The notes under the pieces: generated by a model | What the model saw: only the letters and a program-made list of their open reading frames with translations | The model's database searches: none | Told to the model about the DNA's origin: nothing | Shown here: in pieces, positions 30,787 through 36,948 of the stretch | How positions within the stretch are numbered: the first letter of the stretch is position 1 | Layout: each line of letters begins with the position of its first letter | Source: a candidate division WOR-3 bacterium | GTDB taxonomy: Bacteria > Hydrothermota > Hydrothermia > JBDRYB01 | DNA length: 64,000 nt | Direction of reading: 5' to 3' | Assembly (NCBI GenBank): GCA_039803205.1 | Contig: JBDRYB010000001.1 | Span: 267,413-331,412 of the forward strand | Translations under genes and position numbers: made by a program

Positions 30787-31446
30787 TCATACGAGCGGCG
30801 GATAACCCGGAAGGTCATGGAGAGGGCAATCCTCACAAAGGGGCCCCCTTCTCCTGCACCTGGTTTTTCCGAGGCGAACAAATAGCGCGTGAAACTCGTT
30901 GAAGATCTGCGGTTCGCGGGGCAGGTTGTCGTGAAATAGGGACTGGACCGCTTCATAATCAGCATCCGGCCCAACTATATCGTGCCTGGCGAGAACCCTC
31001 ATAGTGTAGGCATCCACAACGAAAACGGGCCGGCCCAGGGCATATAACAGTATGCTGTCCGCGGTCTCAGGCCCTATTCCGCGAACCGAAAGCAAGGACT
31101 CCCTGAGAGCACTGGTTTCCACTTGCTCCATTCCCTCAAATCCGCCTATCTCCTTGAACCAAATGAGGAAATCCCTTATTTTTCGTGCCTTCTGATTGAA
31201 ATAGCCGGCTGGCCTCACCAGGGCGGCCAGGTCCTCGTGATCCATTTCAAGAAGCGAATCCGGGTCAAAAACACCTCTTTTTTTCAGGTTTTCTATCGCC
31301 CTTTCAACATTCGCCCAGGAGGTATTCTGGGTGAGTATCGCGCCTATGCATACCTCAAACGGCGTATCGCCCGGCCACCAATGCTGGGGACCATACGCGG
31401 AGAAAAGCCTCTGGAAGATCTGGGTCAAAACCTCACTCGTGCTCAT
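30787..31446 (-). CDS. Endonuclease III-related HhH-GPD protein
   Basis: YGPQHWWP, GAILTQNTSW, GIGPETADSILLYA, VVDAYT, Cys cluster at the C-terminus. Confidence 0.9.
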   Translation of the reverse strand: MSTSEVLTQIFQRLFSAYGPQHWWPGDTPFEVCIGAILTQNTSWANVERAIENLKKRGVFDPDSLLEMDHEDLAALVRPAGYFNQKARKIRDFLIWFKEIGGFEGMEQVETSALRESLLSVRGIGPETADSILLYALGRPVFVVDAYTMRVLARHDIVGPDADYEAVQSLFHDNLPREPQIFNEFHALFVRLGKTRCRRRGPLCEDCPLHDLPGYPPLV

Positions 31447-32948: not shown

Positions 32949-34208
32949 ATGGATCTTTTGCTTCTTTTTGGCGCATACATGCCCTACACCGTGGCCGCGG
33001 GCCTCAACTATCCTCACGGGGTAGGGGTGGGAGACATCAACGGGGACGGGCTACCGGATGTCCTGGTCTCGGATACATATGGTTCTCAGGTCTATTGGTA
33101 TGAGAACAACGGCAACTGGGGTTTCACCCGGCACTTCGTTGGCTCGAGCAGTTACCCGCTCTATGTTGACGCTGGGGACATTGACTCAGATGGTGATGTG
33201 GACATCGTTACAGGCGATTACCTGGGCTCCAACATTTATGTATTCTATAACTCAGGCAACGGTTCATCCTTCACATCCCGTGTCCTACCGACATCTGGCG
33301 AGGCCTGGGAGGTTGATCTTGGGGATGTGGACGCGGATGGTGACCTTGACATAGCCACAAGCACAGGCGGAGGGGTTCTCCTGTTCAGAAACGATGCGGG
33401 GCTCTTCACCCAGGTATATGTTGGTTCGCTGAGCTGGCCTCACGGGTGCAGGTTCTTTGACATGGAGGGAGATGGGCATCTGGAGATAGCCTCAACCCAT
33501 CCCTTTCAAGTATTCAAGAACGACGGAGCGGAGAACTTTAGCCTCTATTACCAGGATGCGAGCCTTCAGGAGGGGTGGGGCGTTGGCCCTGCTGACATAA
33601 ACGGCGATGGCTACATGGATGTAGCAGTGAACGATTATTATGGCGGAGCCACATATGTCTATTGGGGAAGCGCCTCTGGCTTCACGAAACAGCCAATAGG
33701 GCTTGCTGGTGAGTCGGAAGGCATGGACATGGGAGAGATAAACGCGCAGACCGGGGTGGACATCGCGGTTGGAGCGGCCTCAAGCTGGGTCATATGCTAT
33801 TACTACAACCCACCCGGCTTCACGGTAGAGATAGTGGATAACCTTTACGACGCCGACTTAGTCGTGATATGCGATCTGAACGGGGATATGTGTCCTGACC
33901 TGGTTGCTTCTGGCCCAATGGGCGGCGCGGTCTTGGCCTACGAGAACAGGAACTGCCCATTTGAGGTCAGTGAGGGGGACGGGAAGGGAGAGCCACAGCT
34001 CAGGATACTTTATGCCGAGCAGGGCCCTCTCGCGTTCCTCGCGGAGTGCTCTGGTGAGCTTGAGATATACGACGCGACCGGGAGGTTGGCCAGGGCATAT
34101 CCCATAGGGGGCTCTAATCAGAGAATAAGCCTTTCCGGCCTTGAACCAGGTGTCTACGCGGCGCGGGTCAAAGGGGTTGGGGCACAGGTTTTCGTTGTCG
34201 GAAAGTGA
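32949..34208 (+). CDS. FG-GAP/VCBS repeat beta-propeller protein with T9SS-type CTD
   Basis: Repeats GDINGDGLPDV, GDIDSDGDVDI, GDVDADGDLDI, ADINGDGYMDV, CDLNGDMCPDL; CTD IYDATGR...LSGLEPGVY; SD GGAGGT before ATG 32949. Confidence 0.88.
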   Translation: MDLLLLFGAYMPYTVAAGLNYPHGVGVGDINGDGLPDVLVSDTYGSQVYWYENNGNWGFTRHFVGSSSYPLYVDAGDIDSDGDVDIVTGDYLGSNIYVFYNSGNGSSFTSRVLPTSGEAWEVDLGDVDADGDLDIATSTGGGVLLFRNDAGLFTQVYVGSLSWPHGCRFFDMEGDGHLEIASTHPFQVFKNDGAENFSLYYQDASLQEGWGVGPADINGDGYMDVAVNDYYGGATYVYWGSASGFTKQPIGLAGESEGMDMGEINAQTGVDIAVGAASSWVICYYYNPPGFTVEIVDNLYDADLVVICDLNGDMCPDLVASGPMGGAVLAYENRNCPFEVSEGDGKGEPQLRILYAEQGPLAFLAECSGELEIYDATGRLARAYPIGGSNQRISLSGLEPGVYAARVKGVGAQVFVVGK

Positions 34209-34278
34209 GGGAAATTCAATTCGGGTAGTCCGGCTATCCGGTGCGAAGGCCGCGCCTAATCCGATATAATTTTAGTCC

Positions 34279-36948
34279 TTGATCCAGCAAAGGTTCGGCA
34301 AGTTTGAGATTCTCTCCTGGATAGGAGGGGGACAGTTTGCTGATGTTTTTCTCGCTCTGGATACCATAATCCAGAAGGAGTTCGCGATAAAGGTCTCGAG
34401 GGCAAAGCAGCGCGAGGCAGAGGCCATGATGGCGGAGGCACGCGTCCTCGCAAGCCTGGATCATCCGAACATCGTCCGTTTTTACTCGGCTGACCTCATA
34501 GAGGAGAGGCTGGTTCTTGTCATGGAATACATACCCGGCCGCAGCCTCCGGAGCCTGCTGGATGAGGGCCCCCTTTCCCTGCCGAGGACCATGAGGATAG
34601 CATCGGGCATCCTTTCCGGGCTCCAATACGCGCACGAGAGGGGGATAATCCACAGGGACATAAAGCCTGAAAATGTGCTTCTGGCGGAGGGCGAAAAGGT
34701 AAAGCTCACGGACTTCGGCCTCGCGGCAATGATATCCAAAGAGAGCTTCTCGGCCTCCATGGCAGGAACCCCCTTATACATGGCGCCCGAGGTCTGGGAG
34801 GGCCACGCCTGCATTCAATCTGACCTTTGGAGCGCGGCCGCGGTTATTTACGAGTGTTTGGCTGGACATCCGCCCTTCTGGGACGAGAGCTACGAGGGCC
34901 TGAGAAAGAAGATGATCTCATCCAAGCCAAAGCCTATCCAGAGGCTGAGCTCCCAGGCCAATCGCTTCCTGTCTAGAGCCCTCGATCCCTCTCCCGAAAA
35001 AAGGCCTCCCTCAGCAAAGGCCATGCTTGATGAGCTTGCAGAATCCCTCTCTGCCCAAACCGAGGCTGTTATAATAACAGGGCCCATAGAGGAACCGAAG
35101 CCAAGGTCGCCAATCCTGGAGGGGCTTTCGGATGAACAGGCTGAGGCTGTCCAGCACGAAGGCCATCTTCTCATTCTCGGTGGTGCTGGCACGGGAAAGA
35201 CCACATGCCTCGCGGCGAGGGCCTCCTGGTTCATCTGCGAGCGCGGCTTTGAGCCAGAATCCGTCTTTCTCTCGACATTCACGGGTCGGGGCTCAGGCGA
35301 GCTCCGCGAGAAGCTCCTGCCCTTTCTCTCTGAGAGCGAGATAAGGAGAATGTGGGTTGGAACCCTGCATTACCTTGCCTCCCGGATATTCTCCGCTGTT
35401 GCGGAACGGGAGGGTTTCCCTGAGGATTTTCTCATAGTTGACCAGGAGAGCTCCCTTAAAATGATGAGGGAAATCGTTGGATCAGAGCGCCAGGCAGGGG
35501 CCGTGCTCAGGGAGATATCCCGGGCAAAGTCAAACCTAGTGGGACCAAAGGCATACAGGGAGGCGGCGAAAACTCCGTGGCAGAACAGGGTTGCTGGTTT
35601 TTACGAGCGCTATCAGGAGGCGCTTACAGCCATGGGAGCCCTGGATTATGACGATGTGATAATTAAGGCCGAAAAAGCTCTCAGGGAGAATCCTGACCTC
35701 AAAGAGGACCTCACCAGAACCTTTCGCCTCATCCTCGTTGATGAGTTTCAGGACCTCAACCTCGCTCAGTTCAGGCTCATACTCGGGCTCACCGGCGGTT
35801 CTGCTTGGTTCACCGCGACGGGCGATCCCCTCCAGGCCATATATGGGTTCCGTGGGGCATCCCCGAGGTTCATAAACGCTTTTGCGGAACGCTTCAATCC
35901 CTATAGGGTCCACCTGAACAGGAGCTACAGAAGCTACGAGGAGATACTCTCGCTCGGCAGAAACCTCATATCCCACAATCCAGACCCTCCCTCTCCGGTC
36001 TTCGCTGTGAGGAGGGCAGAGAAAGAGGTTGTTCACCTCGTTGCTTTGGATGATCCGGAGTCTGAGGCAGGTTTCGTCGCTGACACGGTTGAGAGAATGC
36101 TGGATGAGGGGAGGAATCCGGAGGATTTCGGGGTCCTCTTCAGGACAAACGCGCAGGCTCGTGCATTTGAGGACGCTTTTTCAAGGCGGAGGATTCCCTT
36201 CAACATGGAAGGCGCCTCCAGCTTCTACAGGAGGCCGGAAATAAGGGCATCGCTCGGTTTCCTTCGCTTCATATCAGGGCAAAAGGACAAGGAGGACTTC
36301 GTCCTAATGCTGAGGCACTTTCTCGGGTTCAGGGGCGAGGAGGTAAAGTTGGCTACGCAGGGTTTCAGCCAAAAGTCCAGGCCCACAATGAGCAAGAAGC
36401 TCCCAGAGGATAAGCTATCTGCGCTGGAGGCATTCTGGAAATACATAACGGGTATCGGCCCAGAGGAATACGAGAACCTTACGCCCCAGGAGATCCTGAG
36501 AAGGTTCTATGATTTTACGGGCTATTCAAGGATATTCTCCGAAGCGCATACCCCTGGGAGGATAATGGAAAAAGATAATATTGAGGAGCTTCTCTCCCTG
36601 GCAGGGGGCTTTGGCAGGGGAGGGACCAGGCGGCTCCTCTCCCACATCTCCTTGACGCAGGAGCTTTCCGCTAAGGTAAGGGGTGCTGGAGGGGTGAGGC
36701 TCATAACCCTTCACGGCGCGAAAGGGCTGGAGTTCCCAGTGGTATTTCTCACCGGAATGGCGGACGGGCTTTTCCCATCGGGCTCCGCCATCACAAAGCC
36801 TTCGGAAATGGCCGAGGAGAGGAGGCTTTGCTATGTGGCAATAACGAGGGCGCTTGAGGAGCTTTTCATAACATATCCGAAACACAGCAGGGGGCGGTAT
36901 TTTGAGCCATCCAGGTTCATCTACGAAATGTATGTTGTGGAAAGATAG
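34279..36948 (+). CDS. Ser/Thr protein kinase - UvrD/PcrA (SF1A) helicase fusion
   Basis: Kinase: [36 protein letters not shown]. Helicase: [67 protein letters not shown]. Confidence 0.93.

Follow-up and report, generated by a model that had tools for sequence, protein, structure and literature searches.

Can a single bacterial reading frame that carries both a Ser/Thr protein kinase and a DNA helicase be taken at face value, and if so, what would such a protein do? The question is raised by a 64,000-nucleotide stretch of DNA (the window) from a candidate division WOR-3 bacterium, in which a preliminary description made from the sequence alone had noticed a Hanks-type kinase fused to a UvrD/PcrA-like helicase. 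It had proposed a DNA-sensing kinase acting in damage signaling or defense. Based on our comparative analysis, we read the fusion and a protein called ARPP-1 as a two-protein module passed on by vertical descent, with engagement of DNA by the motor likely gating the kinase.

A single intact gene encodes the kinase-helicase fusion

The fusion protein (P0001) and its parts occupy the following positions in the window.

34265..34270, + strand: TATAAT hexamer (seen in the sequence), 9 nt before the P0001 start codon, without a matching -35 box
34279..36948, + strand: whole ORF of the kinase-helicase fusion (P0001), 889 aa, TTG start, TGA stop codon included
34306..35022, + strand: Hanks-type Ser/Thr protein kinase domain, aa 10-248 (Pfam PF00069)
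35023..35124, + strand: linker, aa 249-282, comprising the end of the kinase C-lobe helix and then a Pro/Glu-rich disordered stretch
35125..35895, + strand: N-terminal part of the UvrD/REP helicase (domains 1A/1B), aa 283-539 (Pfam PF00580)
35908..36879, + strand: UvrD-like C-terminal part (domains 2A/2B), aa 544-867 (Pfam PF13361)

The ORF listing gives P0001 as 889 aa, and its translation is free of internal stops. Its TTG codon is the earliest possible start in frame and aligns with residue 1 of the orthologues, which share the N-terminal consensus MIxxxLGKYxI. The next methionine is residue 50, and starting there would cost the P-loop and K38. The single 889-residue ORF with a TTG start called in the preliminary description is thereby confirmed. 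Two genes joined by misassembly can be ruled out based on metagenome contigs that run across the junction and on junction-spanning matches in 79 genomes. The P0001 stretch is covered by contigs of four out of four metagenome runs, all from one study and two of them (X1 and X2) possibly representing the source sample, with no indels in any of them. The kinase/helicase junction itself is crossed by X1 record 1, X3 record 5 (34100-35814) and X4 record 8 (34100-35576). Strain variation inside the ORF amounts to 16 substitutions, 11 of them synonymous and 5 conservative replacements, with no indels.

The preliminary description had further assigned P0001 its own TATAAT element and treated it as a single-gene unit. 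The hexamer is present, but a promoter role is not supported. No -35 box accompanies the hexamer, a two-hexamer promoter scan upstream of the start returned no site and a same-strand gene encoding an FG-GAP protein ends only 70 nt upstream, leaving both an own promoter and a single-gene unit unsupported. No RNA runs containing the P0001 stretch were listed. An HhH-GPD glycosylase gene is located three genes upstream of P0001, and a second genome (G001) also has one at a distance of two genes from its fusion.

Both halves of the fusion possess complete catalytic centers

The N-terminal half matches the Pkinase model over aa 10-248 with an E-value of 2.5e-55 and a score of 188.2 bits, exceeding the cut-off of 31.7. 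P-loop Gly, VAIK Lys, alpha-C Glu, HRD Asp, catalytic-loop Asn, DFG Asp, APE Glu and subdomain XI Arg are all found in P0001, and its catalytic residues (G16, G18, K38, E53, H125, D127, K129, N132, D145-F146-G147, T164, E171, D182 and R242) are invariant across 45 aligned fusions. The HRD arginine (R126) is replaced by glycine in one family, resulting in an HGD motif. The solved kinases nearest in sequence are StkP and PknB, with approximately 250 residues of catalytic domain including all catalytic motifs being alignable (StkP, E = 1.8e-36; PknB, E of about 6e-32). In contrast to these kinases, P0001 possesses neither a transmembrane segment nor PASTA or other extracellular sensor domains, its only other domain being the DNA motor, and the NCBIfam PknB_PASTA_kin model scores it at 204 bits against a cut-off of 450. 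The highest Kyte-Doolittle mean of any 19-residue window is 1.22. A membrane receptor kinase was ruled out on account of this lack of a hydrophobic segment. The source genome encodes a phospho-signaling set of three Hanks kinases, one PP2C phosphatase and two FHA proteins.

The C-terminal half consists of a UvrD-helicase match (aa 283-539, E = 1.3e-59, 202.6 bits) containing the Q-motif residue Q287, Walker A (G301-K307), DEFQD (488-492) and motif III (Q519/R525), followed by a UvrD_C match (aa 544-867, E = 9.6e-44, 150.7 bits) in which R551, R622, G816/E818 and R857 are invariant across the 45 fusions. Overall, helicase motifs Q, I, II, III, IV and VI are invariant in the fusions (Q287, G301-K307, D488/Q491/D492, Q519/R525, R551 and R857, respectively). 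Residues 279-883 align to residues 8-640 of the 724 residues of PcrA (1pjr, E = 7.8e-79) and P0001 likewise aligns to residues 5-636 of UvrD. The entire 1A/1B/2A/2B core of PcrA, UvrD and Rep (1pjr, 2is1, 9dci) is alignable and all motor motifs are found in the fusion family. The fusion differs from these helicases in carrying an N-terminal kinase, in lacking the C-terminal extension, in forming a separate clade and in scoring far under the NCBIfam equivalog cut-offs for pcrA (371.7 vs 911.2), uvrD (316.9 vs 1144) and rep (327.7 vs 951). P0001 stops 22 residues past the PF13361 match, without the C-terminal extension of PcrA/UvrD, and is matched by the pcrA model over positions 2-631 of 725. 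PF21196, the RNA-polymerase-binding Tudor-like domain of this extension, is present in most canonical helicases among the matches listed, but has no match in P0001 and is likewise absent from the fusions among those matches. The PcrA/UvrD C-terminus is reported to bind RNA polymerase (PMC3797733), and its loss suggests that the fusion is likely without transcription-coupled roles. The preliminary description had raised the question of a separate canonical pcrA. Such a PcrA/UvrD-like gene exists in the source genome as a 710-aa ORF scoring 735 bits to the pcrA model compared with 372 for P0001, which rules out P0001 as a replacement of the canonical helicase.

The AF2 model of P0001 has a mean pLDDT of 86.2 and a pTM of 0.55, with pLDDT values below 50 in the linker (aa 261-274) and the activation loop. 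The low pTM and linker pLDDT indicate that the two halves are not confidently docked, and the model suggests that a flexible tether joins kinase and helicase. The linker is poorly conserved in the consensus of the 45 aligned members and no conserved linker Ser/Thr beyond the catalytic motifs was identified in this consensus. Taken together, what the preliminary description had read from the letters with regard to architecture stands: full sets of kinase and SF1A helicase motifs, a short Pro/Glu linker between them, no transmembrane segment and no C-terminal Tudor-like domain.

The fusion represents a conserved and vertically inherited family

Fusion matches spanning the kinase/helicase junction are present in 79 of 201 genomes of the phylum (counted by hand), and the relatives carrying them are labeled WOR-3 or Hydrothermota. 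Twenty families have the fusion, and 78 of their 81 genomes encode it, as a single-copy gene. Of the best 120 clusters at 90% identity, about 95 are Pkinase+UvrD fusions of 815-924 aa, and 32 full-length and 2 fragmentary fusion representatives at 50% identity score far above canonical helicases. Names of cluster members include a Synergistota MAG, Thermosulfidibacteraceae and 'bacterium JZ-2024 1'.

The fused helicase domains (n = 21) form one clade (UFboot/SH-aLRT 100/100) that excludes 16 canonical helicases from these genomes. Fused and canonical helicases show correlated pairwise identities across 16 genomes (Mantel r = 0.88, not reached in any of 5000 permutations), with mean pairwise identities of 40% and 49%, respectively, indicating that the fused helicase evolves faster. 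These sequence comparisons show that the fused helicase arose once and is a paralogue of the PcrA-like canonical helicase kept by the same genomes. They further indicate that the fusion is a conserved family whose vertical descent tracks that of the canonical helicase, as opposed to an oddity confined to a single genome. The members used for the conservation alignment (45 fusions) are 30-83% identical to P0001, and both catalytic centers are under purifying selection. Literature searches found no paper on the Pkinase-UvrD architecture or on its pairing with ARPP-1, and nothing relevant on DUF6569, in agreement with the earlier remark that no characterized protein of this architecture is known.

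ARPP-1 is the sole recurrent neighbor of the fusion

The only gene found repeatedly next to the fusion encodes ARPP-1, a cytoplasmic, short and signal-peptide-free PF20208/DUF6569 protein (221 bits vs a cut-off of 27, E = 2.1e-65). Among 19 loci examined, 8 have it directly next to the fusion in the same orientation, as do 30 of the 79 fusion genomes judged by coordinates (28 upstream, 2 downstream). Using a profile of the short type, ARPP-1 was detected in 74 of 201 genomes. Fusion and ARPP-1 occur together in 73 genomes, the fusion alone in 6 and ARPP-1 alone in 1, while 121 genomes have neither. Two of the six fusion genomes without ARPP-1 have copies cut by contig ends, and in the sole ARPP-1-only genome (G155) the ARPP-1 gene sits at a contig end. 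Several fusion and ARPP-1 clusters also share the same longest contig size (63019, 58358, 38203, 10569 and 130551). In the source genome, the ARPP-1 gene is found 63 kb from P0001. It thus falls outside the window and was missed by the preliminary description, whose stand-alone unit turns out to have a tightly co-occurring partner. ARPP-1 never adjoins the fusion in the window's own class, where varied housekeeping genes surround ARPP-1 in 10 loci examined, and the apparent link in this class is one of co-occurrence among related genomes, which are non-independent samples.

Invariant residues of ARPP-1 are C112, Q90, E83, E114, R92, R117, R135, S174 and T176 as well as Q156 (18 sequences). The protein thereby resembles the ARPP of the neighborhoods reported by Iyer, Burroughs, Anantharaman and Aravind in 2022 with their described invariant Cys and Gln (PMC9503650). 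Its describers proposed that ARPP acts on sugar moieties such as ADP-ribose and nucleotides (PMC9503650). The systems set out in the sections of that paper considered here are ARG-centered or consist of three pairs (with HIRAN, WYL and a PF01522 deacetylase), and a kinase-UvrD partner is not mentioned in these sections. The ARPP-HIRAN pair is similar to the present one in that the fusion, as the partner of ARPP-1, is a DNA-binding protein that would bind to 3' single-stranded DNA. A scan of three genes on each side of 8 adjacent pairs and 10 unlinked ARPP-1 genes detected neither an ARG nor a rhodanese-phosphatase gene. Structural searches gave nothing convincing with Foldseek against the PDB (best E = 0.018, TM < 0.2) and a best Z of 4.5 over 45 residues with VIA-align wide. 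As no fold match among solved structures was obtained, the chemistry of ARPP-1 is a guess. Four longer ARPP-1 fusions were found, none with a kinase or helicase. Complex prediction of ARPP-1 with the helicase half (aa 276-889), carried out without controls, yielded a score of 0.00, which speaks neither for nor against a complex. The pairing with the fusion provides the first concrete functional handle on ARPP-1/DUF6569, a family without a known fold or activity. The fusion partner and the published HIRAN pairing point to DNA ends or DNA sugars as a potential ARPP-1 substrate.

DNA engagement may gate the kinase

The explanation we favor, tentatively and at slightly less than even confidence, is that a soluble 889-residue protein made up of a Hanks kinase, a flexible linker and an SF1A core works with cytoplasmic ARPP-1 as a kinase gated by DNA engagement. 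A DNA-sensing kinase, as suggested in the preliminary description, is a plausible candidate role for P0001. The motor would load on single-stranded or gapped DNA like UvrD-family enzymes (3'-5' translocation, with monomers translocating and dimers unwinding). PknB-type kinases are activated by dimerization. Loading or dimerization on DNA could pair two tethered kinase domains, which would then phosphorylate each other's disordered activation loop (aa 148-162) in trans, and UvrD/Rep helicase activity has been reported to require dimerization (bioRxiv 10.1101/2024.02.20.581227). The active kinase would then phosphorylate ARPP-1 and/or other proteins, and the one PP2C phosphatase and two FHA proteins of the genome could reverse and read the resulting phospho-marks. 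ARPP-1, a predicted enzyme based on its invariant Cys, Gln and several Arg residues, would be the half of the module that acts as effector or deals with lesions. Control could run in either direction, from DNA to kinase or from kinase to helicase. Most of the known bacterial Hanks kinases have an extracellular sensor or one for small molecules. If our explanation is true, a kinase whose only other domain is a complete DNA motor, with intact active sites preserved across a phylum, would link transactions on DNA directly to protein phosphorylation.

It is conceivable, if rather doubtful, that fusion and cytoplasmic ARPP-1 constitute a previously unrecognized bacterial DNA-lesion checkpoint. The motor would gate Ser/Thr phosphorylation at a sugar-level lesion (an abasic, 3'-blocked or ADP-ribosylated DNA end) captured or processed via the invariant cysteine of ARPP-1. 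The logic of such a system would make it a bacterial counterpart of eukaryotic DNA-activated kinases, and it would be one among several kinase-helicase fusions that arose independently on this principle.

The reverse arrangement, in which the helicase is the output and the kinase its regulator, appears unlikely to us. P0001 would serve in repair or recombination as a helicase carrying its own phospho-switch. Unwinding would be toggled when the protein autophosphorylates its linker or 2B domain, or when it is phosphorylated by the genome's two other kinases, and ARPP-1 would be no more than a co-inherited repair factor. The conserved full helicase motor and the HhH-GPD glycosylase genes near the fusion are consistent with this arrangement, and the flexible tether could allow phosphorylation in cis. 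UvrD-family helicases are, moreover, reported to be auto-inhibited and activated via partners or 2B rearrangement (PMC13646824; bioRxiv 10.1101/2024.02.20.581227). However, the poorly conserved linker offers no conserved Ser/Thr outside the catalytic motifs as a switch site, the genome keeps its canonical PcrA-like helicase for ordinary repair and the fused helicase itself represents the sole candidate sensor domain of the kinase, which leaves a phospho-switch without an upstream signal.

The gene neighborhood does not indicate a defense system

The defense role considered in the preliminary description receives no support from genomic context. The neighbors of the fusion are housekeeping genes, both in the window and in 19 other loci, with no defense island around the fusion in any of them. 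The PADLOC check proposed at the time yielded domain-level matches only (GajB, 251 bits; mad6, 247 bits; PD-T4-6, about 220 bits). Gabija GajB, which is not known to contain a kinase, is the best PADLOC match to the helicase half and matches end to end (aa 280-888). Unlike in Gabija, no GajA/OLD nuclease gene adjoins the fusion here or in the 19 other loci, and a MADS gene set is equally missing at these loci. PD-T4-6 and the MADS kinase MAD6 are similar to the kinase half but their matches span the kinase domain only, no methylation-associated gene set is found nearby and the NCBIfam scores of P0001 stay far below cut-off for both MAD6 (192 vs 460 bits) and BREX PglW (96 vs 990). Known defense systems are usually patchy among close relatives, whereas the fusion is near-uniformly present within families and its divergence parallels that of a core helicase. 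ARPP-1 likewise has no meaningful PADLOC match, with zero families for two of three proteins and an E-value of 0.008 for the third.

We therefore consider it improbable that the pair is an anti-phage or anti-plasmid module, in which the helicase would sense foreign or replicating DNA or phage interference, the kinase would phosphorylate host or phage proteins to cause abortive infection and ARPP-1 would act as effector. Defense kinases and UvrD-like GajB do provide precedents, the faster evolution of the fused helicase would be in line with such a function and VWA and PARG-like PF10021 domains occur in one longer ARPP-1 protein. ARPP-1 was, in addition, first described in ADP-ribose-centered conflict systems, to whose neighborhoods helicases may be linked according to parts of that report (PMC9503650), which keeps some room for a defense role of the module.

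Least probable by some distance is a translocase stripping proteins from DNA or marking them there, its motor running along single-stranded DNA while the tethered kinase phosphorylates proteins it meets (e.g. RecA, SSB or parts of a stalled replisome) and unwinding and lesion sensing are beside the point; a disordered linker of approximately 15-30 residues could let the kinase reach proteins ahead of the motor and UvrD translocation is reported to actively remove RecA filaments (PMC4417151), but the tight coupling to ARPP-1 would be left unexplained.

Kinase-helicase fusions recur outside the family

An N-terminal Pkinase followed by a P-loop helicase is a design that recurs in the ESM Atlas. 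Pkinase+UvrD clusters of 965 and 669 aa are found there, with Acidobacteriota as the commonest phylum, and further designs comprise Pkinase+Viral_helicase1, Pkinase+AAA_11/AAA_12 and Pkinase+DEAD/Helicase_C_2, all of these being feature-based leads and not alignments. The Atlas matches suggest several origins of kinase-helicase fusions and the design may thus be general and not peculiar to one hot-spring lineage. Among distant Pkinase+UvrD proteins, the one tested (P0183, 963 aa) forms a long branch outside the clade of fused helicases studied here and probably represents an independent fusion.

A single gene encodes a predicted soluble kinase-helicase

The kinase-helicase reading frame at 34279..36948 on the forward strand (P0001, 889 aa) translates without an internal stop, as the preliminary description had claimed, and carries three Pfam domains far over their curated cut-offs:

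aa 10-248, Pkinase (E 2.5e-55)
aa 283-539, UvrD-helicase (E 1.3e-59)
aa 544-867, UvrD_C (E 9.6e-44)

Because the NCBIfam pcrA model covers the helicase half at positions 2-631 of 725 (372 bits, cut-off 911) and sequence alignment places this half against PcrA residues 8-640 and UvrD residues 5-636, the 1A/1B/2A/2B core is complete and the C-terminal extension missing, in agreement with the earlier reading. The highest mean hydropathy over 19 residues is 1.22, so the fusion has no membrane segment, also as described. The proposed TTG is the earliest possible start and matches residue 1 of the orthologues in the alignment; starting at the next Met instead would remove the P-loop and the catalytic lysine. 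A TATAAT is indeed present at 34265-34270, but the idea of an own promoter and single-gene unit finds no support, since a two-hexamer scan returned no promoter at this site and an FG-GAP/T9SS-tail gene on the same strand stops 70 nt before the fusion. The convergent accC gene lies 8 nt downstream.

Three metagenome records span the kinase/helicase junction without insertions or deletions, confirming one gene rather than two. The whole stretch is covered by contigs of four metagenome runs, which belong to one study and two of which may be the source sample; these contigs carry 16 substitutions within the fusion frame, 11 synonymous and 5 conservative. The stretch is present in hot-spring metagenome runs from two studies, with only 6% of its sampled words found in the run of the second. 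In the AF2 model of the fusion (mean pLDDT 86.2, pTM 0.55), pLDDT falls below 50 at residues 148-162 (activation loop) and 261-274 (linker). The model is consistent with two well-folded halves whose relative orientation is not fixed. Domain matches and model together show a predicted soluble protein with two putatively intact catalytic centers on a tether.

The fusion is conserved within the phylum and has a single ancestry

By superfamily, the fusion is both a Hanks kinase and an SF1A helicase. It did not classify as a PcrA, UvrD or Rep orthologue, as Gabija GajB or as a MADS or BREX kinase. Pkinase+UvrD fusions of 815-924 aa with 31-99% identity to the query account for about 95 of the top 120 clusters from a 5.8-billion-protein collection; where named, these fusions are labeled as candidate division WOR-3, Hydrothermota/Hydrothermia, Synergistota MAG, Thermosulfidibacteraceae or unclassified bacterium. 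With a profile, 32 full-length and 2 fragmentary members were recovered from 1.84 billion 50%-identity representatives, all clearly over the canonical-helicase plateau at ~597 bits. Among 201 genomes sampled from the phylum, a junction-spanning match was counted by hand in 79; the fusion is carried by 78 of the 81 genomes in the 20 families that have it and is absent from 20 other families. One match (G076:C3:149708-151435) lies inside a 1039-aa open frame, aligns only to query residues 1-573 and may represent a longer or rearranged variant.

In a 45-member alignment the kinase residues G16, G18, K38, E53, H125, D127, K129, N132, DFG 145-147, T164, E171, D182 and R242 are invariant, as are helicase residues Q287, G301-K307, D488/Q491/D492, Q519, R525, R551, R622, G816/E818 and R857. 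Family f2 (L027:7949-10603 in genome G020) has HGD for HRD (a non-RD kinase) and a Walker A of GSGKT and retains the remaining catalytic residues.

The check for a separate canonical pcrA found a second UvrD-family gene: a 710-aa frame at C1:404887-406761 of the same genome reaches 735 bits with the pcrA model and aligns with the UvrD model over its whole length, and many fusion-bearing genomes likewise have a separate helicase match of ~690 aa. A maximum-likelihood tree was computed from 43 rows comprising 21 fused helicase domains, 16 same-genome canonical helicases and 6 outgroup PcrA proteins. On these sequences the pattern is that of one presumably ancient fusion, inherited vertically, because the fused domains form one clade (UFboot/SH-aLRT 100/100, 100% of 200 bootstrap trees), its sub-groupings parallel those of the canonical clade, and fused and canonical pairwise identities are correlated across 16 genomes (Mantel r 0.88, matched by 0 of 5000 permutations). 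The fused helicase appears to have evolved somewhat faster than the core helicase, with mean pairwise identities in these genomes of 40% and 49%, respectively. The kinase-helicase design itself seems to have arisen repeatedly, since P0183, a 963-aa protein with the same three Pfam domains, places its helicase on a long branch outside the fused clade, and ESM Atlas matches to P0001 include Pkinase+UvrD in Acidobacteriota as well as Pkinase+Viral_helicase1, Pkinase+AAA_11/AAA_12 and Pkinase+DEAD/Helicase_C_2 clusters, which are leads rather than alignments.

The fusion co-occurs with a short ARPP-1 protein

In 8 of 19 other fusion loci, a co-directional PF20208 (ARPP-1) gene of about 290-305 aa directly adjoins the fusion; it is the sole exception to otherwise varied housekeeping flanks. 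The PF20208 profile detected ARPP-1 in 94 of the 201 phylum genomes and in none of 14 control genomes. By coordinates, 30 of 79 fusion genomes have ARPP-1 immediately next to the fusion in the same orientation (28 upstream, 2 downstream), often spaced by a few bases only, and all 30 pairs belong to classes other than that of the window. In the 5.8-billion-protein collection, the length of the longest contig is identical for several fusion clusters and ARPP-1 clusters.

Two types can be distinguished: a short type of ~300 aa without signal peptide (at least 278 bits to the short-type profile) and a long type of 317-393 aa that begins with a signal peptide (150-205 bits). With the short type called at E <= 1e-60 across the 201 genomes, 74 were positive, 73 of which also carry the fusion, 121 had neither and 6 had the fusion without a short match; because related genomes are not independent, these counts are given without a P-value. 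At family level, short ARPP-1 occurs in 20 of 20 fusion families and 1 of 20 families without the fusion. Two of the six fusion genomes lacking a match (G184, G177) have ARPP-1 copies cut by contig ends, and the other four (G178, G148, G192, G115) are 75-94% complete. In G155, the genome with short ARPP-1 and no detected fusion, the gene sits at the extreme contig end behind a PmbA/TldD pair, an arrangement shared with the G189 locus; the fusion may therefore be located beyond the contig.

Fusion and ARPP-1 are not linked in the class to which the window belongs. The copy in the own genome is:

G000:C1:238360-239229 (locus L039:7349-8278), minus strand, short ARPP-1 (P0145, 309 aa), 63 kb from the fusion and outside the window

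Two co-oriented downstream genes, one small and dTDP-sugar-isomerase-like and the other Methyltransf_4, complete a trio that recurs in the same-genus genome G032. Neighbors of unlinked ARPP-1 in 10 own-class genomes are varied (an adjacent CdaA-type DAC in 2, a nearby NUDIX gene in 2, RelA/SpoT in 1).

The sole paper found on ARPP describes it as unrelated to characterized domains, with absolutely conserved residues including Cys and Gln, and as a predicted enzyme on sugar moieties, possibly forming SRAP-like covalent links (PMC9503650). The same paper places ARPP in ADP-ribosylglycohydrolase-centered conflict systems and in two-gene pairs with HIRAN, a WYL regulator or a PF01522 deacetylase, and its passages on these points make no mention of a kinase-UvrD partner (PMC9503650). 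The fusion and ARPP-1 did not classify as part of an ARG-centered ARPP system. Invariant in 18 short ARPP-1 proteins are N26, P31, G82, E83, Q90, R92, P109, V110, C112, E114, R117, W118, R135, Q156, W160, S174, T176 and G204. AF2 gave a confident ARPP-1 model (pLDDT 89.1, pTM 0.91); comparison with solved structures gave no convincing match, PADLOC models no meaningful match and NCBIfam no matching model. Literature searches returned no paper on the kinase-UvrD architecture or on its pairing with ARPP-1; the substantive novelty is the two-protein module, its components being of known kinds.

Long ARPP-1 occurs in many phylum genomes independently of the fusion (loci L227-L246, e.g. L227:418-1455 and L235:3062-4015), directly beside a TonB_C gene in 3 of 17 long-type loci (18 ARPP-1 loci examined). 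VWA and PARG-like PF10021 domains are present in one of four longer ARPP-1 proteins; kinase and helicase domains are absent from all four. At L029:10588-12140 (G052), the order is fusion, short ARPP-1, then a PF01522 polysaccharide deacetylase gene, the last from a family reported as a partner of exported ARPP (PMC9503650).

A DNA-templated kinase switch is tentatively favored

PknB-type kinases are activated by dimerization. UvrD-family enzymes are reported to load on single-stranded DNA and to require dimerization or a partner for unwinding. Since the helicase would be the only candidate sensor for the fused kinase, these properties lead us to favor, tentatively and at somewhat under even odds, a switch in which DNA-templated loading or dimerization of the helicase would turn the kinase on, with ARPP-1 as its possible substrate and/or a lesion-handling effector. 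The earlier suggestion of defense is unlikely. ARPP being known from conflict systems speaks for it, but in PADLOC the fusion matches at domain level only (GajB, mad6, PD-T4-6), its window neighbors (FIST protein, HhH-GPD glycosylase, MFS transporter, FG-GAP/T9SS protein, accC, TPR protein, holA) giving nothing meaningful. Equally improbable is a helicase with a phospho-switch. A translocase that strips or marks proteins is least probable of all.

An HhH-GPD DNA glycosylase gene (30787-31446, minus strand) is found three genes upstream of the fusion, and G001 has a further one (L034:6032-6652) at a distance of two genes from its fusion; this nearness, in 2 of 20 loci, may be due to chance. No LexA exceeded the NCBIfam cut-off in the own genome, the best match (65.8 against 110.95 bits; a 214-aa frame, C3:87871-88239) covering the peptidase part of the model only.

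For the favored kinase switch, the own genome has candidate signaling parts. Its only two other Hanks kinases are encoded in tandem (G000:C3:129782-133581), clustered with the genome's single PP2C phosphatase and one of its two FHA proteins. Kinase-phosphatase-FHA is a classic cluster type, and PP2C could reverse, and the FHA proteins read, phospho-marks placed by the fusion.
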